A stretch of DNA of 34,208 nucleotides from a virus. Its lineage: Duplodnaviria; Heunggongvirae; Uroviricota; Caudoviricetes. Below, piece by piece: positions 1 through 25,464 of the stretch (positions within the stretch are counted from its first letter, which is position 1; the number at the start of each line of letters is the position of its first letter). The stretch lies in IMG/VR virus record IMGVR_UViG_2778261511_000013, one strand, 5' to 3'. Both the position numbers and the translations under genes were made by a program. The notes beneath the pieces were generated by a model. It saw nothing but the letters and a program-made list of their open reading frames with translations, was not told the DNA's origin and made no database searches.

Positions 1-705
1 TCATATTAGAACCTCCCCGAGTAAACATTCCCAACGAAATTTCTTCAGTTTATATATTTCTAAATTATCCCTAATTATTCCATCCTGCTTTGCTTTATCG
101 GCCCAACGATTATGAGGATGTACAGTCCCAACTAACTGCCACCCAGCACCTTTTAAAGATGCGCCTGTTTCACTGCTTAGAGTATAGGTAATAATTTTTT
201 CTCCTCCCATCATTTTCCAGATTGTGCTACATCGACTAATCAGAAAGGAGCAAGTTCCTTTTGGAGATTTGTCACTGACACATAATCGTGTAATCTCTGC
301 CGTCACACCATCCATGTACGTTGCAGATACGGGATTTCCAACTATCGCTACACCAACCAATTCATCAGAATCTATGTGGTAGGCAGCTATAGCCCATCTG
401 CCCGAATTCCTTGACGTTGGTCGATGGTGTCGATGATAAATAGAAACAAATTCATTTGCTTTTTTTATCGTTATAGGTTTTACATATAGTAACTTCGCCA
501 AAATCCACACCTTGTAACATGATGGTAATATCATTACAACAATACAAAACTTATTGATTTTTAACAACCAATTATAATGCCTAACCCCCATAGCACTACT
601 TATCTTGTCTTCAAAAATCAGCTCGCATCCTGCACAGTTCAGCGCATTACGTTGTAGATCTGTGTTCTGGTCATTTGTTGACACACGTACATAGCCAATA
701 AGCAT
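1..705 (-). CDS. chimeric ORF: invertase N-terminus (~36 codons) fused in frame to an unrelated domain with GNAT-acyltransferase-like motifs (possible Mom-like modification enzyme or toxin)
   Basis: Open frame from ATG at 705 (SD CAGGGAG 8 nt upstream) to TGA at 3..1. Residues MLIGYVRVSTNDQNTDLQRNAL...IFEDK match the Hin/Gin/Pin serine-recombinase N-terminus, then similarity stops. Downstream ...ELVGVAIVG...RLCV..KSPKGTCSFLISRC...TYTLSSETGASLKGAGWQLVG resembles GNAT motifs. AT-rich linker at about 480-600. Confidence 0.4.
   Translation of the reverse strand: MLIGYVRVSTNDQNTDLQRNALNCAGCELIFEDKISSAMGVRHYNWLLKINKFCIVVMILPSCYKVWILAKLLYVKPITIKKANEFVSIYHRHHRPTSRNSGRWAIAAYHIDSDELVGVAIVGNPVSATYMDGVTAEITRLCVSDKSPKGTCSFLISRCSTIWKMMGGEKIITYTLSSETGASLKGAGWQLVGTVHPHNRWADKAKQDGIIRDNLEIYKLKKFRWECLLGEVLI
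598..705 (-). pseudogene. DNA invertase (Hin/Gin/Pin-family serine recombinase) N-terminal remnant; catalytic core and HTH absent
   Basis: Only about 36 aa including the YVRVST motif with the nucleophilic Ser are retained; no recombinase sequence follows. Confidence 0.6.
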
Positions 706-759
706 GGTAGATCTCCCTGACAAAAGCAGGGATGATGCCATTTGCTCGTTATTTCTACA

Positions 760-2245: not shown

Positions 2246-2959
2246 CTACCGTCCTATCGAAATATAACTGAATCTGTATTGCTGTGAGATATCACTGGTT
2301 GCCACACGCCACGCTGAATTACTGATATGTTCAAAATTTACAGACAAAACCTGCGGGGCAGGATTCGACGGGTCTGACTGAACGGCATCAGACATAACAC
2401 TGACTGAAACCATCGGCTGATTAGGGAATGGTATAGGGAAGTGTCCACTGATAAAGCGGGTCGTGTTTCCTGAAAAAGTGCCAAACTGAACAATATATCC
2501 ACCTGGTAGCCTGAACCATCCCGAACCAGAAGCGAATGCTCCCATATCCGGTATCTGATTATCTCCTGTGCCCACATCCCTTTTCGCCGCTTCTCCTAAA
2601 CCAAGGTTTTCGAGAGCCGTTTTCACCGTGCCATCCGATTTGATATCGCCAAACGGATTCTTGCGGCTCAGGTATTCAACAGCAAACCCCGATCCCAGCA
2701 ATTCAACAAAACCGGGCAGATCACCATTATCAAGCACATCCCGTTGCGTTTTATCACTTACAAACTGGGCCAGAGCTGCAGCAATAAAGCTGGCCTGCCG
2801 AATAACCTTATTGACTTGCGCACTGGAGGCTTTCCCTGCTGTAAATCCAGATAAAAGCGCGGGCAACGCTTCCCATTCCTCCTGCGATATAACATTGGCA
2901 TTTCGATCCGTTGCAAACGCTTTAAAGTCATTTTTCGCCATCAGAGTAATACTCCCCAT
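2246..2959 (-). CDS. tail fibre protein (constant N-terminal part about 2617-2941, variable C-terminal part 2246-2590)
   Basis: 237-aa ORF downstream of the baseplate genes; crossover site lies within the gene at the GLGE motif; likely start is the ATG at 2941 (MAKNDF..), overlapping the upstream stop (TGATG). Confidence 0.65.
2591..2616. repeat. invertase crossover site (hix/gix-like dyad) inside the tail-fibre gene
   Basis: TTCTCCTAAACC-AA-GGTTTTCGAGAG; inverted relative to the 760-785 site; encodes LENLGLGE in the fibre frame. Confidence 0.65.
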
Positions 2960-3621
2960 GCTCCTACATCAAAACCACTGATGAATTCGTTATCCATATC
3001 AAAACCAAAAAATTTTGAGCCTTCCGATGGGGTTTCCACCGAAGGTGTTTCAATGCCACCCGCCCATACCCCGGCGGCTTTTACTGTGAGATACCCCTGT
3101 TTAATTGCCGCAATTAACTCACGCGATACATCTGAAATATCAGTATCAGGAAAGACCCAGACCGATATCGTCATGTCCTGGTTATCGACTATCTGCATTC
3201 GCAGTCCGGATCCTGCTGTTGCCGCGTCAAGAATTGCCGGAAGCGAATCATTCCGTCCGTCCCAGTTATTAATCGCAATCTTCGCTTTAAGGATGACACG
3301 ATAAGTTTCATCGCTGAGGTACATGTATCCGGAATCAGGATCGTATGGCCCCTGCCATACACCCTGATCATATCCAAGCCCGTCGGTATCCCAGCTGAAA
3401 TAGACACCTGAAATAGGCTGGCTGACAACACGGCTACGTCCGATCCACAATCCCAGAATGTCAAGTTGCACACCAACCGCAGAGTCAATATCAAATGCAG
3501 TAATCAGCCCTCTGGTGGCAGCCGCAACATCAATAAGCGGCCGGGTCATCAGATCAACATGTGCAAGAAATTTAGGTTTGGTGGCGTGGTAGTTCGTGAT
3601 TAGTTCGGTGTATTTGCTCAT
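2941..3621 (-). CDS. baseplate/tail protein (P2 gpI / Mu gp48-like)
   Basis: 226 aa between the baseplate J-like gene and the fibre; position and size; overlaps the upstream stop (ATGA at 3618-3621). Confidence 0.5.
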
Positions 3622-4817
3622 GACTCCACCGTTATAACGATATTTTCCGGGGTACAGGACGCAGATTCGTTGTATCTGATATCAATGTTTGATGACGACA
3701 AAGCCCCCGGGGATTTCCCAATCGTCAGTTCCTGAATATCGTAATAGCGTGCATTCCCGCCACTCACCACGCCAAGATTCGCCGGTGAGTAAATGCGACT
3801 TAAAAGGACCGAATCACCAATCATCAGACTATTGATATAGTCGGAAATAGCCTGCTGGATCTGCTGCCCTATCTGTGAGGTATAACCCGTAAAAACTTTT
3901 AATTTAATCCGGGCATAAACAGGCACATCACTGGAACGCGAAAATTTGATTACATGGGGATTGCCGTATTTATCCGGAACCGTAACGGATGTTGTACCGT
4001 GAGTGGCTGTTCCCTGGCCTTTATTCCCTCTGATAGCCTGAGCAATATCCGTCACATCACCGCCATCCACAATTACAGCAACAGAGTGTGGCGGTAACCC
4101 GTTACCGTCCTCCGAACCATTATCGTTTTCATAGAGTTTGTGGCGGGTTACACCGGTAACATTAGAAACAGCACCATTCAGTGCTTCAAATGGGGTTATT
4201 GATGGCAACGCAACACTTTGCGACTGTCGGATACGTAACTCCGCATCAGTTTCTGCCGGAGTGCCCACAGTAGCCGCAGCAGGATTGGTTACCGAAACCC
4301 AGCCACGGGTTGGCGTATTAATTTCAGTGATAGTTCCAGCCAGCGCCGCCACTGCACCACTGACGGAACATGTTGCGGTCACCATCACTGTACCATCCAC
4401 GCCGACCACCACTGAAGCAGGCAAACGCCATATCACATTATTACTGTCTTTCACGCTGCCATTAATGATGGTTGTTCCGGCAGTTCCTGTAAGAAGCAAA
4501 TCAACCGTAGAGTTCGTCGCGCCTTTACGTGAAATACCATTTATTTTCACGTTACTGGTCAGTGCAGCCCCATAGCCAGTTGCTGGTGAAAAACAGTTGT
4601 AGACAGTTATCGCCATATTATTGGCATCATGAATCGCCAGCGCCATCAGAGCCACCATCTGGCCGTCTTTGCTGTCCGGTTCGAGGTAGGCATCACTGCC
4701 ATAAATCTGCTGAAAATAGCTAATCAGGGTGCTGAGTATCGTCTGATAATCAGGCGCACTGATCCCCTCCGCGGTTACCTTTGCAGATAAACCGAGAGAA
4801 TCAAGGTTCAGAGCCAT
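3618..4817 (-). CDS. baseplate J-like protein (P2 gpJ / Mu gp47 family)
   Basis: 399 aa; size, synteny (W-like, J-like, I-like, fibre) and general resemblance to baseplate J. Confidence 0.6.
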   Translation of the reverse strand: MALNLDSLGLSAKVTAEGISAPDYQTILSTLISYFQQIYGSDAYLEPDSKDGQMVALMALAIHDANNMAITVYNCFSPATGYGAALTSNVKINGISRKGATNSTVDLLLTGTAGTTIINGSVKDSNNVIWRLPASVVVGVDGTVMVTATCSVSGAVAALAGTITEINTPTRGWVSVTNPAAATVGTPAETDAELRIRQSQSVALPSITPFEALNGAVSNVTGVTRHKLYENDNGSEDGNGLPPHSVAVIVDGGDVTDIAQAIRGNKGQGTATHGTTSVTVPDKYGNPHVIKFSRSSDVPVYARIKLKVFTGYTSQIGQQIQQAISDYINSLMIGDSVLLSRIYSPANLGVVSGGNARYYDIQELTIGKSPGALSSSNIDIRYNESASCTPENIVITVES

Positions 4818-5170
4818 TACGCCTCCGATGTAACAGTCGTTATTCCATAAAGAGTGTCGATTTCAGCGGAAAACATGACACGTCGGGTCGTGGTATCCAC
4901 CGTCGTATTGAAAGAGAGGATTGATTTAACGCCCTGCGTTTCGAGGATGCGCTTACGGATCGCCAGGTTGTAGGTTTCCGGCTTCTGCTTACCGAGTACG
5001 GACTGGATCCACGGAGTCCCCTCGGTGGTGTCGAGAAACCATTGCCCATACCACAATTCGAATCGCGTTTTTACCGCCTGCGCCACGGCCTCCGGTGAGT
5101 TAATCAGCCAGGTGTCATCACCGCTGCCAAAGGTGTAATCGCCATCGGCGTCTTCACGTCTGTATCGCAT
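4817..5170 (-). CDS. baseplate wedge protein (gp25/W-like)
   Basis: 117 aa immediately upstream of the J-like gene with ATGA overlap; canonical position. Confidence 0.5.
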   Translation of the reverse strand: MRYRREDADGDYTFGSGDDTWLINSPEAVAQAVKTRFELWYGQWFLDTTEGTPWIQSVLGKQKPETYNLAIRKRILETQGVKSILSFNTTVDTTTRRVMFSAEIDTLYGITTVTSEA

Positions 5171-5922
5171 CAGTTTACTCCGTCGGTATTGCTTCCACCG
5201 CGCTGAACACCACCATGAGTGTGCGTATCATCAATTGGCTTGCCGTTAGCCTTCACGCTACCCAAAAACTCAACAGCACCAGTGATTTTTGAAGCCACAC
5301 CAGAAACCACAGACCCCACCATGCCACCCATCCAGGTTAACAGGCCATGAATGGTTACTTTCTCAGAAAAATCAGCCAGAGGGGCAACCACATCAAGACC
5401 ACCCGGAGCGACAATTTTAATTTTCCTGGTATCAGGATTAAGCTCAAAATAGGTGCTGCCGTCATCACTACGCAACTGTGTGGCACTGGTATTAATACCG
5501 CTAATCTTCCTTGCCTGCGACTGGGGACCGACAATACAAAACGCATCCGATAAATCATGCATTCTGTCATCGACCGGCTCCTGTATCCCGCCGCTCTGCC
5601 ACCAGAAATCAATACAACGATCGGCAAAAATCATCAAACATTCATCACCGGCTTTAACTGGGAACGTTAGCGTGCATCCTCCGCCGCGCGGGAATACCAC
5701 TGGCACATCCACCAGCAATGGGTAATTTTGGGTAATGCGGTTGCCGTCATTATCCTTTTCAACCGAACGGATAGCAGGCTGCACAACTGCCGTCACCGCA
5801 TCAGGATCGAATGACTGAATAATGCCAGGCAAGGCGACACGGATCTGGTTCTTTGTTGTTTCCCGTTCAGATTTGAATGTTTCGGCAAGGTCGCCGCTGC
5901 GGGTCTGGTCAGATACGGCCAT
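5170..5922 (-). CDS. baseplate spike/assembly protein (gpV / Mu gp45-like)
   Basis: 250 aa; Gly/Val-rich C-terminal tip region; position before the W-like gene. Confidence 0.5.
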   Translation of the reverse strand: MAVSDQTRSGDLAETFKSERETTKNQIRVALPGIIQSFDPDAVTAVVQPAIRSVEKDNDGNRITQNYPLLVDVPVVFPRGGGCTLTFPVKAGDECLMIFADRCIDFWWQSGGIQEPVDDRMHDLSDAFCIVGPQSQARKISGINTSATQLRSDDGSTYFELNPDTRKIKIVAPGGLDVVAPLADFSEKVTIHGLLTWMGGMVGSVVSGVASKITGAVEFLGSVKANGKPIDDTHTHGGVQRGGSNTDGVN

Positions 5923-5937
5923 TTAGTAGGCTCCAGA

Positions 5938-5968
5938 AAGCAAAAAACCCGCCTGGTGGCGGGTTTGA
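5938..5968 (-). terminator. rho-independent terminator (likely bidirectional) ending the tail moron
   Basis: Minus strand AAACCCGCC-ACCA-GGCGGGTTT followed by TTTTTTG; + strand stem followed by TTTGATTTAT. Confidence 0.7.
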
Positions 5969-5983
5969 TTTATAAGAACTTCA

Positions 5984-6157
5984 CTAACTATCTTTCTTGG
6001 GAAAAGTTGAAGGCTTGTCGTGATAGCTTTCCGTCATAATTTCGATATCCCCGAAAGGTACTCTAGCCATAATCTCTTGCTCATAGTTATCTAGGAAAGA
6101 GACCTCAGGCTCACTTGGTTTAGGTTGTGGTTCATTTTGGTCTTCTGGACAGGACAT
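5984..6157 (-). CDS. small acidic Pro/Glu-rich protein (57 aa), unknown function
   Basis: Translated by hand: MSCPEDQNEPQPKPSEPEVSFLDNYEQEIMARVPFGDIEIMTESYHDKPSTFPKKDS; ATG 2 nt after the upstream stop; missed by the 60-aa ORF cutoff. Confidence 0.45.
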   Translation of the reverse strand: MSCPEDQNEPQPKPSEPEVSFLDNYEQEIMARVPFGDIEIMTESYHDKPSTFPKKDS

Positions 6158-6159
6158 AT

Positions 6160-6690
6160 TCAAACCTTACTTATTAACATGCACGTTACAGAAATAATAA
6201 AAAATACAAATGACATAACCATCCATCGAAACAACTCATTTACAAACGCTGATTTTTCTTTATGGATTTTCTCGATTCTATCAATAGCCCTACCATACAT
6301 TATCAAATGAAATCTGACTGTGTCATCTCTACTACCCCTCAGAAGAAATTCATGTTGTTCAGGTGTTCGATGCACAGGCATTTTGGGAATATTTCTAAGT
6401 TCCCAACATTTCCATAAATAATAAAAACAAAAAACCAAACATACAAAACATGAACATAGACACAATAGAGACAATCTTGCGGATAGACTAGTCTTTAACT
6501 GTTGTCCCAGCTCAAAGGACCCAAAAACGGCTAATAATGCAGAAATCTCAACACCAAGCACAGCAAGAAGAAAATTAGCTTTGTCCTCTAACCGCCTGTA
6601 TGTTGTCTTAACTTCTTCATACCTGTCTCTCGAGTACGACAAAATCGTATCTACTTCAAGGCCAACAGCCTCATTCCTTTGATTGCACAT
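6160..6690 (-). CDS. three-helix inner-membrane protein (176 aa), unknown function; moron cargo
   Basis: Hydrophobic segments FLLAVLGVEISALLAVFGSF, LSLLCLCSCFVCLVFCFYYLW and VMSFVFFIISVTCMLI; markedly AT-rich compared with flanking tail genes. Confidence 0.6.
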   Translation of the reverse strand: MCNQRNEAVGLEVDTILSYSRDRYEEVKTTYRRLEDKANFLLAVLGVEISALLAVFGSFELGQQLKTSLSARLSLLCLCSCFVCLVFCFYYLWKCWELRNIPKMPVHRTPEQHEFLLRGSRDDTVRFHLIMYGRAIDRIEKIHKEKSAFVNELFRWMVMSFVFFIISVTCMLISKV

Positions 6691-6696
6691 ATTGTA

Positions 6697-7050
6697 TTAA
6701 TCGTCAACCTTCTTACAAGGAAACGAACCTATGATTCTCGGCGCATCCATGCTGTTCTGCAGTAGTTGGACATTCAAGAAACGCGTTTCGGTACCCGGAC
6801 GGCGAATGAACTCGAAACCGTAATTGTTACCGTCTTTGGCTGGCATAAGCCCCATATCCGCCTTCATTCCATTACCGTTGCCGAGCGTTTTGATTTTCTG
6901 GGAGGTAACTGTCTCACCATTAATCCTGAACAATGAATCAGGAATCAACTCTAATTTGTAGCCACCACACTGAAGCGTGACACCGCCAGGATTCGCAGCA
7001 AATGCGAACCCCGGAAGGAAACAGAGTCCAATAACAATCCACTTTTTCAC
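6697..7050 (-). CDS. secreted/periplasmic small protein (117 aa) with cleavable signal peptide, unknown function
   Basis: GTG start with strong SD (GAGGTAGGA); N-terminus (M)KKWIVIGLCFLPGFAFA|ANP has an AxA signal-peptidase I site; two Cys in the mature part. Confidence 0.55.
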   Translation of the reverse strand: MKKWIVIGLCFLPGFAFAANPGGVTLQCGGYKLELIPDSLFRINGETVTSQKIKTLGNGNGMKADMGLMPAKDGNNYGFEFIRRPGTETRFLNVQLLQNSMDAPRIIGSFPCKKVDD

Positions 7051-8117
7051 TATCCTACCTCACGCTGTAAAGACGACGCCGAACGAAGATCCGCCGCACC
7101 GCGCGCTTCGCACATCATATCCATGTACCACGCCTGGCCCCTTGTGTCGCCAGTGTACATAATCCCGCGCACAATATAAACGCCATCCGTTGCGATGCTG
7201 GCAGGCTGCGATATGGTGCCGCTTAGCGTAATATTTCCGTCCGTGTTCTGGTCGGTGATCTGCCCACCAGCCATAGCGATATCGTTGTTCGACAACGCGG
7301 TGCGATATACGGAAGCCTGATCCAGTTGAATGAGCCCATTAACCCGGATGTTCGGATTAATAAGCGCGCGGACGTTTACGCCGTTGCCGATGGTCTGCTG
7401 CGGCATGCCAATAAGCCCGGTAGCGCTGTTGAGCACAATCGCTTCGTGAACATATTCATTATTCACCACCATCTGGCGCTGACCATCCACGAATTGCCAT
7501 GTTGCGCCACATTGCCCGGCTACGTTATCCATTAGATGCCGCGTCATGCCAAAGAGCACCCGCCCCCGGGGGAATACAGTAGCAGGCATTTCAGGCGTCA
7601 GGCCTTCGGTCGCACCTTTGGCTTCGAAGTCTTTCATCAGCGCACGGTTCACATCAGCGACCGTGTAACCGGCAGCCAGCGTCTGTGAGGTTATACTGGT
7701 GGCAAAAGCCAGATCAGTATCTGCTGCCTGAATCAGGACGTAGGAATCAACCGGACTGTCTTTTCCTGTGACCGAGTAGCGAATTTCACCGCTGAAAATC
7801 AGTCCGTAGTTGCGGCCATCTCTCTGGCCCACGTCCGCCGCGTCAACTTCCCGCACGGTCCCTACGTCGCTTGCTGACACCTCCGGCGCGATACCGTCGT
7901 AACCGGCAATCAGACGCACTTTCGAAAATTCCTGCCCGGTGATTCGGTTCACAGTATCTGCCGAGAGGTTATAAATTTTGATAGTCCCTACCCGGGACGC
8001 GCTGCTGATGTTGAACCAGTCGATCGTAAAGGTGACTTTGAAATCACTTAGCTCAATTCCCTGACCGTTCCCGTCCACAAGCTGCAGCTCGAAATGTCTC
8101 ATCCAGTTCTGTGACAT
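7050..8117 (-). CDS. baseplate hub protein (Mu gp44 / P-like)
   Basis: 355 aa; position after the tape measure and small tail proteins. Confidence 0.45.
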   Translation of the reverse strand: MSQNWMRHFELQLVDGNGQGIELSDFKVTFTIDWFNISSASRVGTIKIYNLSADTVNRITGQEFSKVRLIAGYDGIAPEVSASDVGTVREVDAADVGQRDGRNYGLIFSGEIRYSVTGKDSPVDSYVLIQAADTDLAFATSITSQTLAAGYTVADVNRALMKDFEAKGATEGLTPEMPATVFPRGRVLFGMTRHLMDNVAGQCGATWQFVDGQRQMVVNNEYVHEAIVLNSATGLIGMPQQTIGNGVNVRALINPNIRVNGLIQLDQASVYRTALSNNDIAMAGGQITDQNTDGNITLSGTISQPASIATDGVYIVRGIMYTGDTRGQAWYMDMMCEARGAADLRSASSLQREVG

Positions 8118-8119
8118 GC

Positions 8120-8422
8120 TTACTCCGTTGATACCAGTAAATGACTGAGGCCGCCCAGATCAGTTTTCGTGGGATAATCCTGTGTGTTGTCATCGCAGAC
8201 CACCACCAGCTTAAAACCAAGTCCCATACAGGCGTACTGCGCCAGCAGGTCAGCACCAGTGACGAGAGGAATACCGGAGATTACCGGCTCCCCTCTGTCG
8301 TTCTGCAGGTCCATAATCCAGTACAGATCGCGCCATATGATGCTAATCCGCCAGGTAACACCACCCAGGACGATGCTGAACTGCTGGTTGTCCGCTGTCA
8401 GCGGAATTTCCTGAATTGTCAT
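8120..8422 (-). CDS. tail protein (100 aa)
   Basis: Tightly packed ORF in the tail operon. Confidence 0.4.
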   Translation of the reverse strand: MTIQEIPLTADNQQFSIVLGGVTWRISIIWRDLYWIMDLQNDRGEPVISGIPLVTGADLLAQYACMGLGFKLVVVCDDNTQDYPTKTDLGGLSHLLVSTE

Positions 8423-9009
8423 TAGCCGCCCCCCAGTAATGACGCCACGTTACCCGTGATGCTTTTCAGCAGTGAAGTATCTGGAGGCTTGGTGGTTTTG
8501 TTGCCGCTGTTCTGTACCGCCGACGTGCTAGCCCCTTCCTTCATGTTGGTTTTATCCGCGACGGTAATCTGCTGCGTCCGGGAGATAAGGACCTCCCTCA
8601 GGGTGAGGACGGCGGACAGGACGTTTTCGGTTGTCTTGTCCGTCGTCACTTCCAGCGCCCGGATCAACATGTTGCTGTACAGTCGTTTACCGGTTACCAC
8701 ATCGAAGGGGATACGGCTTTCCTGCAGATCCAGTAGCTCCTGATACGTCTGCTGAGGACTCAGGCCGAGCAGGCTGGTAGCCGTCAGATTACTGGCAAAA
8801 TCCAGCAATGCGCCGCCACCGGCGAAACCAACCTCCATCACCACTTCTGACGGTTTTTTATAGGCATGATCAGCGACAGCGGCCCCAACCTCTACCGGAT
8901 GCTCTGTTATTTCAAGCATATCTGTATGCTTCTCTGAAATAACAACACTGGGAACAATCATTCCTATTTTTCTGCTCTGCTGATGAAAAAGTGTAGAGAG
9001 AATATCCAC
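8422..9009 (-). CDS. tail protein (195 aa)
   Basis: Overlaps neighbouring genes by a few nt; directly downstream of the tape measure. Confidence 0.4.
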   Translation of the reverse strand: MDILSTLFHQQSRKIGMIVPSVVISEKHTDMLEITEHPVEVGAAVADHAYKKPSEVVMEVGFAGGGALLDFASNLTATSLLGLSPQQTYQELLDLQESRIPFDVVTGKRLYSNMLIRALEVTTDKTTENVLSAVLTLREVLISRTQQITVADKTNMKEGASTSAVQNSGNKTTKPPDTSLLKSITGNVASLLGGG

Positions 9010-10997
9010 TAACCCACCCTCACCTGATTACTTCGCATGACCTGAGCATTTGCAGACTGTTGCCGACGTGCAACCTCATTACCGACAGCGTGCGGATCTC
9101 CACCACCGTAAATGTGGTAGGTATTTTGCTGGTTAACCTCTGTCATTTTGCCACTAATTCCCGCCACGGCAGCCTTATTAATCAGCTCTCGAGAATAGAT
9201 ATTTCTTCCATTTTCATGCTGGATAATGCTGCTCATCAATGCTGACATGGTTTGCGGATCGCTCATATTCAGGGCAGCCCGGGGATCCACTCCCAGTCGT
9301 TGCGATACAGCCCTGATATACGCAGTTGTGTTGTTATTATCAGACGCAGGTGCCCAGGTAGAGATAATTTTCTCCACACTGTTTATTCCCCGTCCGGCGT
9401 ACAGCATTAACTGACGAGCAAGAGCCCGTAATCCATCAAAAGCAGTTTCAAATCTGGCAAATCGCCCGCCCGGGCGTTCAAGAGAAGCCCCTGCCTGACC
9501 AGCAAAATTAAGGTTTCCCGGATTGTTATTCCGTTCTCCTCGTTTCGTAGCCTGTGCATATTGTTCCGGCTCATCATCACCAAACCAGCCGCGTACCGTC
9601 CGGCCCACACTGCGGGGATCGAATCCCCAGTGCTCTTTAATCCAGTCGGCAGTACTGTTAGCGCTGTCTGTAACCATCGGCATCGCTGACGGATTTTCGC
9701 TGCCCTGATTAAGTATCTGTTTGCCGATGATGACGGCATCAGCCCAGCGGCCATCTTTGATAGCGTTGAGCAGGTCGGCGATCATGTTCAGCATTTTGCT
9801 GAATTCGCCCATCTGGTCGATGAAGTTGCTGAAATCCCACTTCAGGGACCATGATTTTGGGTCAATATTGAGCAGTTTCGCCAGCGCTTTCGCCAGTTCA
9901 TTAACAGACCCTTTCAGGTCACGAACCATCTTCAGCGCGGCATCGACCTCCGGCTTCCACTTGCCCCAGTCAATCAGGCTGTCGCCGCCTTCCTTCCAGG
10001 TCTGATAGTCCTCCCACAGAAGGGCAATCCCCGCCGCCAGCGCGGTAATGAGACCAATCGGCGACATCCAGAACGTACTGTTCAGAATGCGCAGCGCAAT
10101 CGTCAGCGCGCCAAACAGCGAGATGAGCTCCCGCGTTTGCTTATCCAGCGATTGCCACCAGGTGATAAGGCTGGATGTTCCCTCAATTAGCCTGAAGAAC
10201 AGCCGCCCGATGATGTCTCCGATCGCCAGAATGCCTTTTATGGCTTTCGTCAGGGTCTGCTCGATACGAGGGAAGTTGTCCAGGATATGGCGGCGCAGGG
10301 TGTCCAGCGAACCCGCAAGCCCACCCGCAAGATTAGAGCCGATTTTGTCACGGGCCATGCCTGCCATCGCGCCGAACTCGCGCAGGGAGGTCATGAATTT
10401 GTTGGAGCTTCTGGCCGCCTCGTCAGCATTGAAGCCGATAGCTTTCGCCATTGCGCTGTACTGCCCGGAGAACCCCCCCACACCCCGGCGCATCGCCATA
10501 AGGGTATTTTCGTCAATGCCCAGCATCTGCGCATACTGGTTAGCCCGGTAATACGGCATGCTGCTGAGCTTCTGGCCGACGCCCGTAAAGATAGCGGCCA
10601 TGTCGCGCATGTTACCGCTGGCGTCACGGGTCTGTACCCCCAGACGATTCAGAAATCCCTCCGCCCCGGGGTTATTACGGATAAAACGGGCAAGGCTCTC
10701 CAGTGACCCGCGCGCAGCGTCCACGCTGCCGCCAACCTGCGAAACCGCATAGCCAATAGACTGAATTCCCTGGACTGTCGCGCCGGTGCGCTGTGACGCC
10801 CAGTAAAGATTATCCAGGCCGGAGGCGATCTTAGCCGTGAAGGCCACCACGGACAGCGCAGCTCCTTCAACGGCCAGTCCCATTTTGATGACATTTGCAG
10901 TTGTACCGGCGAGGACAGAACCGAACTTTTTCGCTCCTGCATCATCCACACTGAAGCCAAGCGAGACGAGGAAATCTTTAATAGTTTCAGCGTTCAT
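9009..10997 (-). CDS. tail tape measure protein
   Basis: About 660 aa, Ala/Gly-rich with predicted helical and hydrophobic segments; start MNAETIKD at 10997 overlaps the stop of the frameshifted chaperone extension. Confidence 0.75.
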   Translation of the reverse strand: MNAETIKDFLVSLGFSVDDAGAKKFGSVLAGTTANVIKMGLAVEGAALSVVAFTAKIASGLDNLYWASQRTGATVQGIQSIGYAVSQVGGSVDAARGSLESLARFIRNNPGAEGFLNRLGVQTRDASGNMRDMAAIFTGVGQKLSSMPYYRANQYAQMLGIDENTLMAMRRGVGGFSGQYSAMAKAIGFNADEAARSSNKFMTSLREFGAMAGMARDKIGSNLAGGLAGSLDTLRRHILDNFPRIEQTLTKAIKGILAIGDIIGRLFFRLIEGTSSLITWWQSLDKQTRELISLFGALTIALRILNSTFWMSPIGLITALAAGIALLWEDYQTWKEGGDSLIDWGKWKPEVDAALKMVRDLKGSVNELAKALAKLLNIDPKSWSLKWDFSNFIDQMGEFSKMLNMIADLLNAIKDGRWADAVIIGKQILNQGSENPSAMPMVTDSANSTADWIKEHWGFDPRSVGRTVRGWFGDDEPEQYAQATKRGERNNNPGNLNFAGQAGASLERPGGRFARFETAFDGLRALARQLMLYAGRGINSVEKIISTWAPASDNNNTTAYIRAVSQRLGVDPRAALNMSDPQTMSALMSSIIQHENGRNIYSRELINKAAVAGISGKMTEVNQQNTYHIYGGGDPHAVGNEVARRQQSANAQVMRSNQVRVG

Positions 10998-11232
10998 TAT
11001 CCTCTCTCCATTTCTCAATGCGCCGCTGGTTATCCGCTTTTACCGCCAGATGGTCATTCAAGAGAGCAATGTCATACAAATCGACAGAGCCATCTTTAAG
11101 TGCTGTATAGGGAATTAACCCGGCGTCAACCGGATTGAGAAGGTAGGACAGCCCGTCCGGCAGGCTGTTAAACGTCAGCCCTGTTGCAGGCTCTGCGTCG
11201 TGCTGGTAAGGGGTGTAGGCAAAAAATTTCCC
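10987..11232 (-). CDS. -1 frameshift extension of the tail assembly chaperone (lambda G-T analogue)
   Basis: Tandem slippery heptamers G_GGA_AAT and T_TTT_TTG (minus strand 11232-11220) in the zero frame, 17 codons before the chaperone stop; the -1 frame stays open for about 79 codons and ends with TGA overlapping the tape-measure ATG. Confidence 0.55.
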   Translation of the reverse strand, partial: GKFFAYTPYQHDAEPATGLTFNSLPDGLSYLLNPVDAGLIPYTALKDGSVDLYDIALLNDHLAVKADNQRRIEKWREDNER

Positions 11233-11627
11233 AGCGAATCGGCGACCACCCGCGCCACCAGATGAAGCATGACCAGCAAGTCAATATCATCAAACATCAG
11301 TTCGCCCTGGGTAAATACCGGAACCCATCCGTCCATATGACGCCGCGACACCACCGCAAGACAGGGATGAATAATCGCATCGGTGTCATCTTCGGTCAGG
11401 GAAGACAGTTCCTCAGCGATACGCGGGAGCATGGTTTCAAACACCGGTTTTAACTGCTCGAATTTCACGGTGTCGATTTTGCCGTCAGCAGGCAAACGGG
11501 AGCGAATGCTCCCGAAATCTGACATCATTCCCGCCAGTACCGGCAGAAGTTTGCGGGTCACTTTCAGCTGGTCAAAAACGCTGAGTTTTGCCACGCGATA
11601 TTTCACGCCTTTGATTTCGAATTCCAT
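11175..11627 (-). CDS. tail assembly chaperone (zero-frame product)
   Basis: 150 aa between the tube and tape-measure genes; carries the slippery site near its 3' end. Confidence 0.6.
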   Translation of the reverse strand: MEFEIKGVKYRVAKLSVFDQLKVTRKLLPVLAGMMSDFGSIRSRLPADGKIDTVKFEQLKPVFETMLPRIAEELSSLTEDDTDAIIHPCLAVVSRRHMDGWVPVFTQGELMFDDIDLLVMLHLVARVVADSLGNFLPTPLTSTTQSLQQG

Positions 11628-11630
11628 GCA

Positions 11631-12071
11631 TTAAAACTCCCCGAGAACCTGGTCAATCTTGCCGCAGTCAAACACCCACGGCATCGTATTACCGGTTTTA
11701 GCGTTGGCGTTATCCGGTTGTTTCTGGAACGCAACACTGCGTGCCGTGATGATGTCGCCGCTGACCTTGTTGCGGATCACGATAACGTTATTCCCCCATG
11801 TGGCAGAAGACTGGCTCTGTGCGTTATACGCCAGCGACAATTTTTTATTTGTCGATGATGTCTTCAGAAGGTTAACGGTAATCGTCCCGCTTTTATCTGC
11901 ATGGAGACTGTGCATCACTTCGCCATCAGCACCGATGGTCATGGTGTTTTTAGGACCGCCCATCGCAACCACAATCCCCTCTTCAGAACTTGCAGAACCG
12001 TACCCGAGGTCAATCGAACCGGTCGGGCCGGTCAGCGTCGCAGTGACATCCATAAAAGAATAGGTAGACAT
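11631..12071 (-). CDS. tail tube protein
   Basis: 146 aa directly downstream of the sheath-sized gene. Confidence 0.5.
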   Translation of the reverse strand: MSTYSFMDVTATLTGPTGSIDLGYGSASSEEGIVVAMGGPKNTMTIGADGEVMHSLHADKSGTITVNLLKTSSTNKKLSLAYNAQSQSSATWGNNVIVIRNKVSGDIITARSVAFQKQPDNANAKTGNTMPWVFDCGKIDQVLGEF

Positions 12072-12081
12072 TCACTTCCCC

Positions 12082-13227
12082 TTAGCGAACAACGTTAATC
12101 TGTACGTCAGCGTAATGAACCGCGCCTGCAAGTTTTATTGCAGCCTGAATCACCGGAGCCTTACGGGCTTCACGTTCTGATTGTGCCTGTTCATCCAGCG
12201 GCTGGGCGTATACGTAATAACCTTTGGGCAGCGTGTCACCTGATGACAACTGACCAAGGTCGCCACCGTTCCATACGCCCGGAGCAATCAGTCCATTCTG
12301 AACGGCCTGATCCAGTGATTTTTCAACATTTGATAACAGTCGGGTAATACCGGCTTCAGTCTGGGGAACCTTCGTGGTGCTGGTATAAAGCAGGTTATAG
12401 AGGTTGGTCTGCACATAATTCTGTAACCAGTCCAGGCCGTGGCGTTCATCAAAGAAATCGCCGTTAGCCATCACTCCCTGCTGGAGGATAGCTGTATCAT
12501 TCTGGTAGTACACGAACACATTGCAGTTTTTTGCATCAAGTGCCGATGCCTGGCTGACTGTCAGTGTTTCATACCCGACACCCGGCTCCTGCTTAAACTT
12601 GAGCGTAATCGCGGTATTACTGCCATTGAAATTAACCGTGAATGCCCGGCCAAATGCAGATAACGCAGCGTATTTACTACCCGATGAATATTGAATAAAA
12701 CTGCGTGAATATCCGGCGGTTTTCAGTTTTGATGCCAAATCATCGCTGGATGCAGTCTGCAGGCATTTCTCATCGCTTGTCGTAATCGCCAGAATACGGC
12801 TTACAGAAGAGGATTCGATCGCCGCAGCCACTTTCAGCCAGTCTGCATCCGGAATATCTTCATCGTCTGCAATCCCCAGCCCATACCATGAAGTATAATC
12901 GAGCATGGCATTCACAGCCTGCTCCAGCGTCTCAGGCGTGGCCTGTTCGCTGTCTCCCTTCGTTTTCACCCAACGACCAACAAAAACCTCCTGAGGTTTC
13001 GGTGATTGAGAGAAAAACACCTGCGCAGCCTTATATTCTGGTGATTCCACGCCAAAATCTTTTCCAATATCTTCCGCGGCAGAATAACGGCGAATGCGCT
13101 CACTTACCGGAATGATTGTGGACGGGCCGAGAATGAGTAATGCACCAAAATTTCGCCCTGATGCTGCACGCGGCGACATGATCACATCAACATTAACAAC
13201 GTTTGATACAGGCAAGCCCTGTGCCAT
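12082..13227 (-). CDS. tail sheath protein (putative)
   Basis: 381 aa preceding the tube gene in a tail with J/W/V baseplate genes, which implies a contractile tail. Confidence 0.45.
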
Positions 13228-13230
13228 AGC

Positions 13231-13839
13231 TTAATCTCCGAAAAAGATGACTGGTGCTTCCACCAGCGATTTAATACCGTACTCGCGCACAACCTTCCGG
13301 CGCAGACGCACCGTCATATCGTAGCGGCGGACCCATTGCTGATTAATAAGTTCAGGGAAGGGAGTCAGACCTGTGTAATCGCCAAGAGACAGCCCCAGCG
13401 CATTCAGTGCTGCGTTGTTCTGCGGTACAGATATACCGTCACGAAACCGGGACGCATACACCATCCCCGCCGGACCATAAAACGAAGCCATACACTCAAT
13501 CGTTTCATGCCGCCAGAGCTGAGAGCCATCATCGGTCTGTCTGGTGAATGCCGGACTGTCATCACCTGACCATCCGATAACCCCAAACGCACACCAGTTC
13601 GTTTCAGCCGGTAGCAGTGGCGGTTGCTCTTTCTGCCAGCGCGGACGAACCATCCCGGCAGACAGACCGGAAACGTTACGCATCCACTGGCTTAACAGCC
13701 TGTCGAGCGCTTCGTCATAATCCGGATCGCCACTGGTTGGTATCAGCCATCCGCGCTCTGTGCTGGTGTTATTGCTCAACCGGAATTCCCCCATCAAACG
13801 GCAGCAACTCACAATGCGCCTGAACGAATCCGGCACCAT
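13231..13839 (-). CDS. neck/tail completion protein (putative)
   Basis: 202 aa between head-tail joining genes and the sheath. Confidence 0.35.
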   Translation of the reverse strand: MVPDSFRRIVSCCRLMGEFRLSNNTSTERGWLIPTSGDPDYDEALDRLLSQWMRNVSGLSAGMVRPRWQKEQPPLLPAETNWCAFGVIGWSGDDSPAFTRQTDDGSQLWRHETIECMASFYGPAGMVYASRFRDGISVPQNNAALNALGLSLGDYTGLTPFPELINQQWVRRYDMTVRLRRKVVREYGIKSLVEAPVIFFGD

Positions 13840-14158
13840 ACGCTGTATACGGGTCGACGAAAGTCACACGATAATCACGGCCCTGATACGTCACGATATC
13901 GGCATCACGGCCAGTCTGTCCCTGCGTCAGTCGCTCAGTCGTCACAATCAGAATTGCACCACTGATTACCTGCCCGGCCTGCATACGACGGTTTTCCAGA
14001 GAGCGATCAACAGTTACGACTCCGGCAAACTGCTTTTTAACTTCGCTGTCGCTGCCGATCCCGTCCTCATCCACCGTTTGCACACGGCGTGTTACCCACA
14101 AATTGAAGTCGCAAAAATCGGGGTCAAAAAGCACATCTGTTACATCAAGAGTCGGCAT
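13769..14158 (-). CDS. head-tail joining protein (putative)
   Basis: 129-aa ORF in the head-tail connector region. Confidence 0.35.
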   Translation of the reverse strand: MPTLDVTDVLFDPDFCDFNLWVTRRVQTVDEDGIGSDSEVKKQFAGVVTVDRSLENRRMQAGQVISGAILIVTTERLTQGQTGRDADIVTYQGRDYRVTFVDPYTAYGAGFVQAHCELLPFDGGIPVEQ

Positions 14159-14699
14159 TTTTATCCCTCACAACATGGGTAATCGCTCTGCGATATTGCC
14201 CGGTGTCAATTAATGGTTTCGCCAGTTCGGTTCCCGGGGATTCGCCAGCAGCACGCCGGGCAAGTTCCAGTGTTGCCCCCTTGCGCCCCCGACGAGCCCG
14301 GGCTTCAACAGTACTGTCAGCAAGCGGCGTAAAGCCGGTAATGGTCATGTAACGCCTGACGCCATTAGCCGCCAGTGTTCCGGCACGGTTGAGTGCGCGT
14401 TCTGCTCCCGCAGCATTACCATCAAGTGCAGCCTGCGCCGCGACTTTGAGCTGCGGCACCGTCTGCTCTTCTGCCGATTTAACGCCGGGAACCAGGTGAG
14501 GTCGTGGCGGGATGTTCTGCTCTGGTGAGCCGTATTCGTTGAGGTAACCGATGCCCGCATTACCAAACGGAACATCATCCCGCCTGCTGTCTTCCGAAGG
14601 GATGCCGACCAGCACATCTTTTTTGGTTAACGACCTGAGCGCATCCAGAATGGCCTTAGCGTTATCCACCCTCGTTGTTACACCGCTTTTGAAACTCAT
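14145..14699 (-). CDS. head-tail adaptor / head completion protein (putative)
   Basis: 184 aa; position. Confidence 0.35.
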
Positions 14700-15103
14700 A
14701 GCTGGCGACCACCTGCACCGAACATCGTGATCAACTGATAAAATTCAGCGCCATATCGGGTGTTATTCCAGAAACCTGCATCAGGATTCAGCGTCGCGCT
14801 GGTGTCATAACTGACGCTTACCTTATCCACGGACTTTGAGGACTGAACACCATTGGTTGAACCGCCCGGACCACCAGCCAGCATCGCCCGACTGTCTGCC
14901 GCCCAGAGCGTCATGTAGTGCGCAACGAACAACCCGGCAAAGTACGGAAACAACTTTTTGCCGGTGACGTTTTCGCTCAGCAGTTCATCGGCCAGATTCA
15001 GACGAAACTGGATTTGCGCTTCGGGATATTTGGCAGGGTCAGCAAACTGCGGGAAGTCGCGGCGAAAATCACTTACCGCTGGCAGACTTTGATTCTTTGG
15101 CAT
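14696..15103 (-). CDS. head-tail connector protein (putative)
   Basis: 135 aa; position after the capsid genes. Confidence 0.35.
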
Positions 15104-15290
15104 TTTTTACCTCGTTACGCGCGTCTGTGGCTTTGCCAACGGATACTTCCGCGTGCGCACGAGTGAACCAGTGCGTGGCAACGTCTTCCTCCACAGCATG
15201 ACGGCCTTTAACAAACTCGCGCCGTGAACCGTCGGGAAGCGTGAGCACAAACGGGGTATGTACGTGTATTACTGCATTATTTTTTGCCAT
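15069..15290 (-). CDS. small head-associated protein (73 aa)
   Basis: SD AAGGATGA precedes the ATG at 15290; immediately downstream of the capsid gene and a hairpin. Confidence 0.35.
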
Positions 15291-15331
15291 CGGGTCATCC
15301 TTAATGGCCCCGCCAGGGGGCCATGTGGCTG

Positions 15332-16273
15332 TTAAATGCCATCAACGTACGAAATGGTTTCTTTGTACACTGGCTCAACCGCACCCAGCTTGCCGTAGTA
15401 AGTGACGATCTGATACAGACCGCGATACTGCACCGGCACGCTCTGAAGCGGAACCAGCGGGTAGCGGACGTATTTTTTATCGTTGGTGTACGCAACCATG
15501 CGATCCTTTTTCCCCACACCACGGCCTTTCAGCCATTTAACCGCGCGGATATTCAGCGGAACACCGTTCTGGTGATAGCTGATGGTGTTGGTCTGAAGAT
15601 ACGTCAACAGGGACTGGTTACCCGCAGATGAAACGATGATGCTGGACAACAGAGCAAACTGCTCAGGCGGGATCAGCAAATCACGCGGAACCACAGAGTA
15701 ACCGGAAGCGGCCCACGCATCAGACAGCACCTGGTTAATGCTTGCGCGGATTTCGTCCGGTGTTGAGGTTGCCCACGTTTTGGCAGCGTTGTTGACAGGC
15801 ACGCCGTCCAGGGTAACAAGGCCTTTCAGGTTTAATGCGGAATCGCCAACATATACCTGTTCATCGTTATCCATCTGCCATTTCAGTTGCATACCGTCAT
15901 ACTTCTGCGTATCAATCGGGCGGCCGACCTGCTGAGCAGCCTGCAATTCTATGACCGTCCAGCCAAGTTCCATCCCCCACAGGTTCAGCGGGTTACCGGA
16001 TTTGCCGATATCCACGTTCACGCCAGCAATAGCGGTTGAGTCTTTGCCTACCCAGTTTTTGCCATTCGGATTTGCACCAGTACCCGCAGCGGCGAAGCTG
16101 GTATTCGTCCAGCTGGAAATGTCATCTGCGATAGAGACATCTTCACGCAACTGAATATCGCGGGTCCAGGTGTACCCCACCAGTGGCAGGTTCAGCGTCT
16201 GGTCGAGTCGCTCCAGCTCCCCGATGAGAAAGGCACCAGAGCTGTCAACGGTTGCCTGATCAAAAGTAATCAT
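15332..16273 (-). CDS. major capsid protein (putative)
   Basis: 313 aa following the protease/scaffold and decoration-like genes; followed by a GC hairpin at 15302-15320. Confidence 0.55.
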   Translation of the reverse strand: MITFDQATVDSSGAFLIGELERLDQTLNLPLVGYTWTRDIQLREDVSIADDISSWTNTSFAAAGTGANPNGKNWVGKDSTAIAGVNVDIGKSGNPLNLWGMELGWTVIELQAAQQVGRPIDTQKYDGMQLKWQMDNDEQVYVGDSALNLKGLVTLDGVPVNNAAKTWATSTPDEIRASINQVLSDAWAASGYSVVPRDLLIPPEQFALLSSIIVSSAGNQSLLTYLQTNTISYHQNGVPLNIRAVKWLKGRGVGKKDRMVAYTNDKKYVRYPLVPLQSVPVQYRGLYQIVTYYGKLGAVEPVYKETISYVDGI

Positions 16274-16284
16274 TCGTCTGTTCC

Positions 16285-16791
16285 TTAAATCTTCCAGGAA
16301 ATTTCTGCATTGCCGTCAGCATCACCGGCACCTGTGAATTCAGCGTTGGTCAGCACCACGTTTTTGCCACTGACTGACGTGGACATGAATCCACCCAGCG
16401 GCACTTTGATGGATTCATCAGTGGAGACGACAACGTATACCGGGTCGCCTTTTTTGATGGTGCTGGCATCAAAATCAGAACCGAGATTAACGGTCACGTA
16501 GCCACGCTTCATGGCGTCGCCCGGGAAGTTCTTGCCAGTCCCCACCTGGCGAACCATGTCCGGCTGCGAAGTGGTCGGATAAGGGCGCACGTAGATCCCC
16601 TTCACCTTGTCTGCGGTATCACCATCTGCCAGCGGCACGAAAAAACCGTCATCATCGTATTTACCAGCCAGGCCATAGGCAGCGAAGGCGTTATCGGATT
16701 TAAGGACCACCGGTTCGACGGTTAAGTCCTGCGGGCGAGAGACAGCCCCGGCAATGCCAACAGGCATCCGGTACAGAAATACATTATTCAT
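16285..16791 (-). CDS. head structural/decoration protein (putative)
   Basis: 168 aa between the protease/scaffold and capsid genes. Confidence 0.4.
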   Translation of the reverse strand: MNNVFLYRMPVGIAGAVSRPQDLTVEPVVLKSDNAFAAYGLAGKYDDDGFFVPLADGDTADKVKGIYVRPYPTTSQPDMVRQVGTGKNFPGDAMKRGYVTVNLGSDFDASTIKKGDPVYVVVSTDESIKVPLGGFMSTSVSGKNVVLTNAEFTGAGDADGNAEISWKI

Positions 16792-16794
16792 TTT

Positions 16795-18015: not shown

Positions 18016-18029
18016 GTGTTACCTGCGAT

Positions 18030-18803
18030 TCAGGCGGGATAAGAATGGGAGGAGGGAAAAACGATTTCTTTATAACAGCGACAATTCGGGAGCTCGCCAG
18101 CGTGACCGGTCATGCCATCAAGCGTTGGAGGTTTGCCCCATTCGACAAATTTACCTTCCATTTCCCGATGAGAATGCCTGACGTCACCATCTTCGGCTGT
18201 ACGCCAGATATAACCATTCGAACCAATTGACAGCGCACGTGCCTGATCCAGCGCGCCGGTTGCACGTCCAAGTTCAGTACGGGCAATCAGGTCAGCTCTG
18301 GACTTTGCTATATCACCCGATGCTGCAATTTCTTTAGCAAAATGTTCTGCTCTCCCACCGGTCACAACAGCTTCTATCGCCCGATTCTGGATGTCGTACA
18401 CCCTGTCAGCCGCCTCGAGGGGGAGCGATTTGATGTACTTGACCTGTTCGGCGATGATGGATTGCATCACCTGCCCTGGCGGGGCACTGTTTACCAGATT
18501 GCGTAGCTCACGGCTGATGGTTTTGCTGTGTTTACGCCACTGCTCATCATTCTTGCGCACAATATCGGCGGTAAAGTTTTCCGCGACCTTTGTCGCCCAG
18601 GGGGTGATGATTTCACTGTAGCGTTCCAGCGCCTCAATAATTTCCGTGATACTGTCATTTGAACCATCGTAGTGACCATTTACGATGTCCCCGACCGCCC
18701 GCGCTATCCTGCGTAGGCTGGTTCGATACCGGATTTCCGCCTGACGGTTCCTGCGGTTCGTCATCAGGTTCGCCGATGCCGGGCGGCGCTTCATCTTCGG
18801 CAT
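18030..18803 (-). CDS. head morphogenesis protein (Mu F / SPP1 gp7-like)
   Basis: 257 aa directly downstream of the portal; the ORF overlaps the portal 3' end by about 150 nt, so the true start is uncertain. Confidence 0.5.
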   Translation of the reverse strand: MPKMKRRPASANLMTNRRNRQAEIRYRTSLRRIARAVGDIVNGHYDGSNDSITEIIEALERYSEIITPWATKVAENFTADIVRKNDEQWRKHSKTISRELRNLVNSAPPGQVMQSIIAEQVKYIKSLPLEAADRVYDIQNRAIEAVVTGGRAEHFAKEIAASGDIAKSRADLIARTELGRATGALDQARALSIGSNGYIWRTAEDGDVRHSHREMEGKFVEWGKPPTLDGMTGHAGELPNCRCYKEIVFPSSHSYPA

Positions 18804-21743: not shown

Positions 21744-21745
21744 AC

Positions 21746-24975: not shown

Positions 24976-25464
24976 CTATGCTACATGTTTAATTTTCTCT
25001 ACACGTTTCCGGTTTTTAAACGCACTATCCAGAACCGGGTAAATCATAAACAACGAGGCATTGAGGATTTCGTCAACTTCCCGTCGACAGGTTGCGAGCG
25101 ATGGTTTTTGAATGCGCCCGCCGCCCCGGCATAACATCTTGCGAGGTCTTGCGACGCGATGATAGTAAGATGCAATGGCGTGCTTGGAAGAGCCGTGGGC
25201 GTAGTAGCTGAGGAGGATGCCAAAGGCTTTCTTGTCAATGTACATGACGGAATCGACGACCTGAGAAATCAACATTCCATCATCATCATTACACATTGGC
25301 CTTGTCATAACTCTTCCCGGCTCTACGCTCTCCATGAACTTAGCTATTACGCTGCTCATGCGCTTTTCCAGACGACCTGAATAAACCCATGCGCCCCACA
25401 GTTCAAGCCAGCCATTCAGCCACTCGTGCTGTTCTTTGGTGAGGTTTAGTTCTCTTATGCCCAC
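24976..25464 (-). CDS. late antiterminator Q (non-lambda allele)
   Basis: 162 aa at the end of the nin region, directly before the pR'/tR' pair; Cys-containing C-terminal region. Confidence 0.65.

Follow-up and report, generated by a model that had tools for sequence, protein, structure and literature searches.

A two-gene membrane-protein cassette in a hypervariable, terminator-capped cargo slot of a SEN34-like prophage tail operon

The viral DNA record IMGVR_UViG_2778261511_000013 (34,208 nucleotides, here called the window) is an Escherichia coli prophage, and its positions 5970-6698 hold a two-gene accessory cassette, read on the minus strand, within a hypervariable slot of a SEN34-like myovirus tail module with lambdoid regulation. 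A conserved gene for a secreted protein forms the upstream boundary of this slot, and the downstream boundary is a conserved terminator placed before the gene of the membrane-puncturing spike. The two genes of the cassette encode an inner-membrane protein of 176 amino acids (aa) with three helices and an acidic tail peptide of 57 aa, and comparison of their sequences with those of distant relatives indicates that the cassette is one of a small family of modules, each combining a three-helix membrane protein of about 165-190 aa with a short tail motif.

Three minus-strand open reading frames (ORFs) lie between the baseplate hub gene (7050..8117, minus strand; phrog_196, E 2e-88; Pfam E217_GP41) and the spike gene (5170..5922, minus strand; Pfam spike N-terminal domain, E 2e-44; GpV Apex motif). 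They encode 117 aa (6697..7050), 176 aa (6160..6690) and 57 aa (5984..6157). An earlier note on this DNA had taken the three together for one AT-rich inserted unit; the three ORFs are real, but the cassette is reduced to two genes by the breakpoints of homology, by base composition and by the conservation of the 117-aa gene. The hub, 117-aa and spike genes are kept, with different cargo between them, in vB_EcoM-689R2, Yersinia phage YP3, Salmonella phage SEN34 and E. coli NRZ96606, and pairwise blastn places the resumption of homology with phages carrying other cargo at window positions 6699-6710, where the 117-aa gene has its stop codon, and on the other side at 5922-5969; where it resumes at 5965-5969 or below, the homologous part takes in the terminator. 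The replaceable cassette therefore runs from about 5970 to 6698 and consists of exactly the 176-aa and 57-aa genes. Its GC (guanine plus cytosine) content is 36.9%, against 46.9% for the 117-aa gene and 49.6% for the whole window, and it is the minimum among all 729-bp stretches of the window (0.03% quantile); along the sequence, GC falls to 0.34-0.37 across 6100-6600 as compared with roughly 0.5 in the flanks. The claim that the 176-aa and 57-aa genes are AT-rich against flanks of about 50% GC is thus borne out, as is the view of an accessory insert, horizontally acquired, between hub and spike. In being an insert between conserved genes with a deviant base composition, the cassette resembles a moron in the sense of Hendrix and Juhala; of two further marks of a moron, a terminator and a promoter of its own, the terminator here belongs to the backbone and the promoter-like matches are at chance level (see below).

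The variability of the slot, which the earlier note had proposed to look for by synteny, is considerable. We scanned IMG/VR with the 117-aa protein, which gave 284 relatives; 80 loci were kept, and both flanking genes could be located in 78 of them. Over these 78 loci the distance from the 117-aa gene to the spike gene ranges from 321 to 2355 bp, so that the slot is never empty, and its contents sort into many mutually unrelated groups. Besides the present pair, which occupies 12 of the 78 loci, we find a YafO-family toxin pair (a toxin of 138 aa, Pfam E 4e-17, preceded by a 192-aa partner, in L047/L048), a DUF2335 membrane protein, Rha/Bro-like proteins, several unknowns and cargos on the opposite strand. 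A role of the pair as a structural part of the virion should go with conservation in all related tails, and 12 loci out of 78 is not that. When ten representative cargo proteins of the slot were compared with the databases, only three reached a Pfam curated threshold and none matched a PADLOC model.

Some of the other cargos deserve a remark of their own. The 192-aa partner of the YafO-family toxin does not belong to the known antitoxins of YafN type. A different cargo, of 170-177 aa and present in vB_EcoM-689R2 (L001 2484-2996, minus strand) and in the slot of L052, carries an RNNLFH motif (Rx4H, HEPN-like) and has no match in Pfam or PADLOC. With its fixed secreted-protein gene, variable cargo and conserved terminator, the slot is a ready site for mining uncharacterised prophage cargo.

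The upstream border is formed by the 117-aa gene, which starts with a GTG overlapping the hub stop codon. Its product was described in the earlier note as the secreted member of the insert. The export signal stands: a typical Sec signal peptide, MKKWIVIGLCFLPGFAFA/ANPG, can be read from the sequence, and the Salmonella orthologue has a signal peptide that differs in sequence yet is still typical. The place in the insert does not, since the gene has a GC content close to that of its surroundings and adjoins the hub gene in every related phage that we examined, with every type of cargo; it belongs to the backbone throughout this tail lineage and lies outside the insert. The protein has two conserved cysteines and matches phrog_3443 (E 1e-46), a phrog of unknown function; a relative 95% identical to it is named by PGAP "STY1065/STY2022 family phage-derived protein", and searches of Pfam, NCBIfam and PADLOC, as well as a sequence search of the PDB, gave nothing. 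Because it carries a Sec signal peptide and is thus exported, it is unlikely to be a part of the virion. A distant paralogue of 121 aa, with a signal peptide and the sequences ..RFKCGDDKF.. and ..YKTCTKM, itself fills the cargo slot in two viral contigs (L091/L093), which hints at the diversification of a periplasmic function.

The downstream border is a Rho-independent terminator (5938..5968, minus strand). Its hairpin and T-run at 5966-5945 have a 9-bp stem with 6 GC pairs, a folding energy of -20.1 kcal/mol and z = -2.5, so the terminator seen by the earlier note is there; what has to be abandoned is the idea that the cassette owns it. A GC hairpin followed by a T-run is found just upstream of the ribosome-binding site of the spike gene in 79 of 79 aligned sequences, whatever their cargo, while upstream of the hairpin these sequences show no relationship to one another; compensatory double changes occur in 3 of 7 stem pairs, and in 689R2 and SEN34 the terminator is included in the sequence common with the window. 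It is therefore the edge of the slot and no property of the cassette.

This terminator stands in the middle of a late tail operon. The gene of the late antiterminator Q lies at 24976..25464 (minus strand; Pfam Phage_antitermQ, E 9e-25), and holin, endolysin, Rz-like and terminase genes follow it on the same strand. In lambdoid phages the Q-modified polymerase reads through terminators during lytic growth, and it would read through the slot terminator in the same way. In the lysogen, the slot may be transcribed at a low level, and the terminator would then halt this slot-born transcription and keep it out of the spike and baseplate genes. A candidate promoter for the cassette, TTGTAA-N16-TACAAT at 6718-6691, was dropped: it abuts the ATG of the 176-aa gene, it is not conserved in Salmonella, and the scan that produced it was at chance level.

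One could also suppose that the cassette is expressed only late, under the control of Q, and modulates the membrane at the end of the lytic cycle (by acting on the timing of lysis, by excluding secondary infection or by reducing the loss of progeny on debris). The 176-aa gene lies inside the late operon, beginning 6 nt past the end of the 117-aa gene, no promoter of its own was detected, and Q and the lysis genes are upstream on the same strand. However, a complete holin, endolysin and Rz-like cassette already exists elsewhere in this phage, members of the family are found antisense to late operons and in loci that have nothing to do with phages, and a terminator conserved right behind the slot makes better sense if transcription of the slot takes place at times when the late genes have to be silent. 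We consider such a lytic role very improbable.

The 176-aa protein was said to be a membrane protein with three transmembrane (TM) segments, and this is indeed what we find: three hydrophobic helices, which also appear in the AlphaFold2 model (mean pLDDT, the confidence measure of the model, 80; helices 10-58, 69-97, 110-118 and 121-175), so that the protein is of the kind expected for a small multi-pass effector. The predicted fold, common to this protein and to P0054, a relative to which we return below, consists of three long helices packed into an elongated bundle with one hydrophobic end, plus a short helix, and both the distribution of charges and the models predict an N-terminus inside and a C-terminus outside the cell membrane. 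The protein falls in phrog_18554 (E 5e-60) and has no significant match in Pfam, NCBIfam or the PDB; weak Pfam matches to DUF3611, DUF6796, 8xMP and Frag1 were set aside as sub-threshold matches to hydrophobic helices. A tblastn search of 50,697 phage records and 72,556 plasmids gave no match. A profile search of 1.84 billion representative proteins (E<=1e-3) found 37 relatives, mostly of 157-190 aa and 17-23% identical, which share an N-terminal ..Y.K..YEE...R..RLEDK helix and an invariant lysine before the third transmembrane helix (TM3); a second one, over a set of 5.8 billion proteins and with a capped number of candidates, contributed little more.

The 57-aa peptide (phrog_18231, E 2e-6; nothing in Pfam, NCBIfam or PADLOC) follows the membrane protein closely, both on the DNA and in evolution. 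Its conserved ATG at 6157 is 2 nt past the TGA that ends the 176-aa gene, whose last codons contain an AAGG Shine-Dalgarno-like sequence. The homologues of the 176-aa protein found in the same slot (41-52% identity) are each followed, after a gap of 1-2 nt, by an ORF of 56-57 aa, and the small proteins share a VPFGD..TES[YF] motif (or VPFG..TES[FY]) at 36-67% identity. The peptide gene is present in all 12 slot loci that have the membrane gene, two of which belong to a deeply divergent subfamily with a 65-aa peptide ending in ..KVVTESYQPPLSKKGK (..KVVTESYQPP). Compared with a 90% identical Salmonella copy, the ratio of non-synonymous to synonymous substitution rates (dN/dS) is 0.10 for the 176-aa gene and 0.18 for the 57-aa gene, which shows that both genes are under purifying selection. 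The suggestion of a tiny acidic ORF translationally coupled to the membrane gene as its partner has thus been strengthened.

The association extends far beyond the slot. A small ORF lies downstream of the membrane gene in 12 of 12 unfused relatives examined, down to about 18% identity, and the motif is recognisable in 11 of them. Distant relatives at 17-29% identity have such a motif-bearing ORF in accessory regions that look like defence islands and at other prophage positions. The small ORFs encode 38-66 aa and are joined to the preceding gene by a 4-nt overlap (ATGA), by 1-2 nt, by 5-10 nt, or in frame after its stop codon. The downstream peptide ends in ..QIVTESYDKPLPK for P0024, in ..VEVCLESFSKKD for P0023, in ..LGVSLESLESL for P0026, in ..RVPVNEDYTPPIKK for P0035, and in ..PPPTTEYVEKSDK and variants of it for P0030, P0060, P0050 and a copy in Pseudomonas. 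P0035 and P0046 were looked up as a test of the prediction, and both have the downstream ORF. Several other relatives, P0033, P0047, P0054 and P0040 among them, carry the motif on the membrane protein itself, at its C-terminus, beyond 40-70 aa of low-complexity linker; the AlphaFold2 model of one of these natural fusions, P0054 (pLDDT 82, above 90 in the core), shows the tail as a disordered linker ending in a short helix. P0026, a close kin of the fused members, has the motif as a separate gene. Whether split, in a peptide of 38-66 aa, or fused, the tail motif is made of a proline-rich part, then h-x-h-[TL]-E-[SY]-[YFL], then a lysine-rich end. That fusion and fission occur within a single subfamily argues strongly for a peptide whose target or partner is the membrane protein. 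As to how the two genes are connected, each small-ORF junction examined has its own Shine-Dalgarno-like sequence, and the variation of spacing and frame among relatives favours translational coupling over frameshifting; for this reason we rejected a programmed frameshift joining the 176-aa and 57-aa ORFs.

A membrane protein followed by a small coupled partner calls to mind a plain toxin-antitoxin or addiction module, in which a membrane toxin and a small labile antitoxin would stabilise the prophage or the cassette without any dedicated anti-phage role. In the SpoIISA/SpoIISB system of Bacillus subtilis, a membrane toxin with three TM helices is directly followed by a hydrophilic partner of about 56 aa, and the toxin-first, tightly coupled layout described here, with its hydrophilic partner of 38-66 aa, matches it; SpoIISA is in addition the second-best PDB profile match, albeit a weak and non-significant one (E 0.24). 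The presence of a YafO-family toxin pair in the same slot of other phages and the retention of the cassette in a degraded Salmonella prophage point in the same direction. On the other hand, neither SpoIISA nor SpoIISB is matched in Pfam, and the existence of natural single-chain fusions of "toxin" and "antitoxin" is difficult to square with a difference in stability between the two. We think that this explanation, taken alone, is quite improbable.

The earlier note recognised none of the three proteins and considered the insert the best candidate for an undescribed system in the window. The proteins of the insert are indeed in no curated family, and we too see in it the most interesting unknown of this region; the membrane protein, however, proves to be weakly but repeatedly similar to PycTM. 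Three PADLOC models of PycTM (PDLC02363-5) match the 176-aa protein over residues 24-104, with E-values from 2.6e-4 to 1.5e-3, and they match 9 of the 37 family members (best E 2.2e-5), for which the other PADLOC models give almost nothing. Faint precomputed matches to PF18967 (PycTM) are also attached to close and distant members of the family. PycTM is described as a pore-forming effector of abortive infection and is reported to kill by disrupting the membrane (PMC11224242). No gene for the PycC cyclase is found near the cassette in the window, nor beside any of the 14 family contexts examined, and this, together with Pfam scores below threshold, makes the family at best a distant, cyclase-less relative of PycTM that falls outside Pycsar.

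A PycTM-like protein carried by a phage without a cyclase, as in all contexts examined, might also be a decoy, that is, a subunit that poisons or titrates the Pycsar-type membrane effectors of the host as an anti-defence device. Nevertheless, the same two-gene module exists in chromosomal accessory islands away from phages, the similarity to genuine PycTM is too low for the two to be likely to assemble together, and a decoy leaves the conserved peptide partner unexplained; the probability of this explanation seems to us close to negligible.

What surrounds the members of the family outside the slot is the company of accessory, defence or toxin-antitoxin cargo, not that of structural genes. One distant member adjoins a Type ISP restriction enzyme, a UvrD-like helicase, a DUF4760 protein and a JetD-like protein; another is in a mobile-element region with RelA/SpoT and Panacea-domain genes; a third is near an IS200-type transposase, a methyltransferase and an SLFN/AlbA_2 protein. 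Members also occur near the lysis and immunity region of another prophage and at a prophage edge. In Pseudomonas luteola (NZ_CP044087.1; L113 4998-5662, plus strand), a member and its 41-aa peptide, ..PPPPPPPTEYVRKDK.., sit between the gpS and gpV genes of a P2-like prophage, in antisense orientation; here a tail lineage unrelated to that of the window also has a family member immediately before its spike gene. The 90% identical cassette of Salmonella is in a degraded prophage next to pncB (L011/L013), where a segment from integrase to RecT is joined almost directly to a 115-aa gene, to the cassette and to tail genes, and where sopE lies at the opposite end; more than 1,200 index blocks of assemblies list the protein of this cassette.

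This distribution also bears on the possibility that the cassette mediates a non-lethal superinfection exclusion (Sie), in which an inner-membrane protein tuned by the peptide would block the entry of phage DNA at the cytoplasmic membrane. HK97 gp15, P22 SieA and T4 Imm, which act in this manner, are small inner-membrane proteins from compositionally foreign inserts in the structural operons of temperate phages, and several known Sie genes are morons of this kind. Here too we have a small inner-membrane protein in an AT-rich insert of the tail operon of a temperate phage, near the spike gene and a conserved periplasmic protein, with another member of the family just upstream of gpV in the P2-like prophage. 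But there is no similarity to any Sie family (SieA, SieB, Imm, gp15) in Pfam, the PHROGs annotations, NCBIfam or the PDB, the family is also present outside phages, in chromosomal accessory regions, and its sole family signal points to a pore-forming effector. We regard exclusion of this type as unlikely, while taking it seriously, and the genomic context together with the weak link to PycTM leads us to favour an effector with a regulator over a sieA-like protein.

The explanation that we favour, and which we find plausible while stopping somewhat short of calling it probable, is that the cassette is a latent membrane effector of the PycTM type, carried by the prophage, free of any cyclase and gated by the tail peptide, and that it serves as an abortive-infection or exclusion module. 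The 176-aa protein would be able to permeabilise the membrane with no need of a cyclase; the tail peptide would regulate it in cis or in trans, either as an inhibitory pin or as an antitoxin-like partner, coupling ensuring a 1:1 ratio. Phage infection, or the loss of a labile peptide, would release the effector, the membrane would be depolarised, and the cycle of the superinfecting phage would be aborted, to the benefit of the lysogen population. The cassette, its slot, the family, the linkage of the two genes and the purifying selection on them are established; that the protein is toxic, that the peptide regulates it, what sets it off and that it is expressed in the lysogen are parts of this scheme that we infer.

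Several observations weigh against this explanation and should be set beside it. The PADLOC match to PycTM is weak, covering about one third of the model and partly transmembrane segments; a fresh Pfam scan of the window protein and six homologues gave no PF18967 match even at E<=10, none of the 37 family members matches PF18967 at 0.01, PADLOC calls no system at this locus, and fold searches returned only generic long helical bundles. The argument from defence islands rests on few contexts. With the predicted topology, the fused tail would be periplasmic, and the split peptide has no signal sequence, so that a simple model of a cytoplasmic antitoxin fails to account for both forms; one may speculate that a dynamic or non-spanning third helix offers a way round this conflict. 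Finally, a scan around the cassette gave 5 promoter-like sites, of which none stands out, against 4.4 expected by chance, and if the cassette has no promoter its expression may be late-lytic only.

It is possible, and we say so only tentatively, that the pair represents an undescribed immune or exclusion module independent of any cyclase, with a PycTM-like effector gated by the tail motif in cis or in trans, exchanged as cargo of terminator-capped slots in baseplate operons and of bacterial accessory islands. Neither the two-gene nor the fused form of the family was found in PADLOC 2023, Pfam, NCBIfam or the searchable literature. If the cassette does protect lysogens, it would be a minimal membrane effector system in two parts, without an enzyme for nucleotide signalling, and it would mean that effectors of the PycTM type can be wired to another trigger. 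That the tail peptide comes in a split and in a fused form offers a built-in handle on how such effectors stay inactive.

The stretch 5938-7050 has an identity of 100% with E. coli strain ECONIH2 and of 99.6% with IAI1; in full length it is found in 8 of 5,426 complete E. coli genomes. RefSeq/PGAP calls no gene over the equivalents of the 176-aa and 57-aa genes in ECONIH2 (L006 1485-2260) or IAI1 (L005 2985-3760), where the locus tags show a gap despite the purifying selection on both genes. Pipelines that mine called genes will therefore miss them.

As regards the remainder of the prophage, an identity of the whole window with the ECONIH2 prophage was rejected, the two being collinear only over about 2590-21928. 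In the early region of the ECONIH2 prophage (L030), a SIR2-family and a TIR-domain gene flank a DNA polymerase gene (33766-35268, 37474-38208); these genes are absent from the window because collinearity is limited in this way, and a different lambdoid early region replaces the one that bears them. At the other end of the window, a 246-aa ORF (1-741, minus strand) that ends exactly at the window start has weak Pfam matches to Resolvase-N and to a Mom-like family, and next to it (732-2243) are tail-fibre and assembly ORFs in opposite orientations, an arrangement that resembles an invertible host-range segment. An MT-A70 family DNA methyltransferase is encoded at 27213-27803 (minus strand) in a nin-like region, near NinG and a Ser/Thr phosphatase.

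How do the cassette and its slot compare with systems already described? To the Sie morons (HK97 gp15, P22 SieA, T4 Imm) the likeness is that of a small inner-membrane protein in an insert of foreign composition within a structural operon; the present family differs in that no sequence relationship is detected, in its occurrence outside phages and in its obligatory peptide partner. With SpoIISA/SpoIISB the pair shares gene layout and sizes, but in SpoIISA a globular cytoplasmic domain comes after three N-terminal TM helices, whereas here a helical stalk is predicted between TM2 and TM3. The resemblance to PycTM (PF18967) is in size (about 160-180 aa), in the multi-pass inner-membrane character and in a charged N-terminal helix leading into TM1; what separates the family from Pycsar is the lack of an adjacent PycC, a similarity below the Pfam threshold, and the conserved tail, as a peptide or fused, which is not a described feature of Pycsar. 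Lastly, accessory and defence hotspots of temperate phages are known, such as those of P2 and P4 (Rousset et al. 2022, PMC9122126), and the slot resembles the latter by its fixed position between conserved genes and by the many unrelated cargo cassettes that it holds across related phages. It differs from them by the phage lineage, by its position inside the baseplate operon, between a secreted-protein gene adjacent to the hub and the spike gene, and by a downstream edge that is a universally conserved terminator. The slot is thus a new hotspot among the known cargo hotspots of temperate phages, with an unusually clear, terminator-capped architecture inside the baseplate operon.

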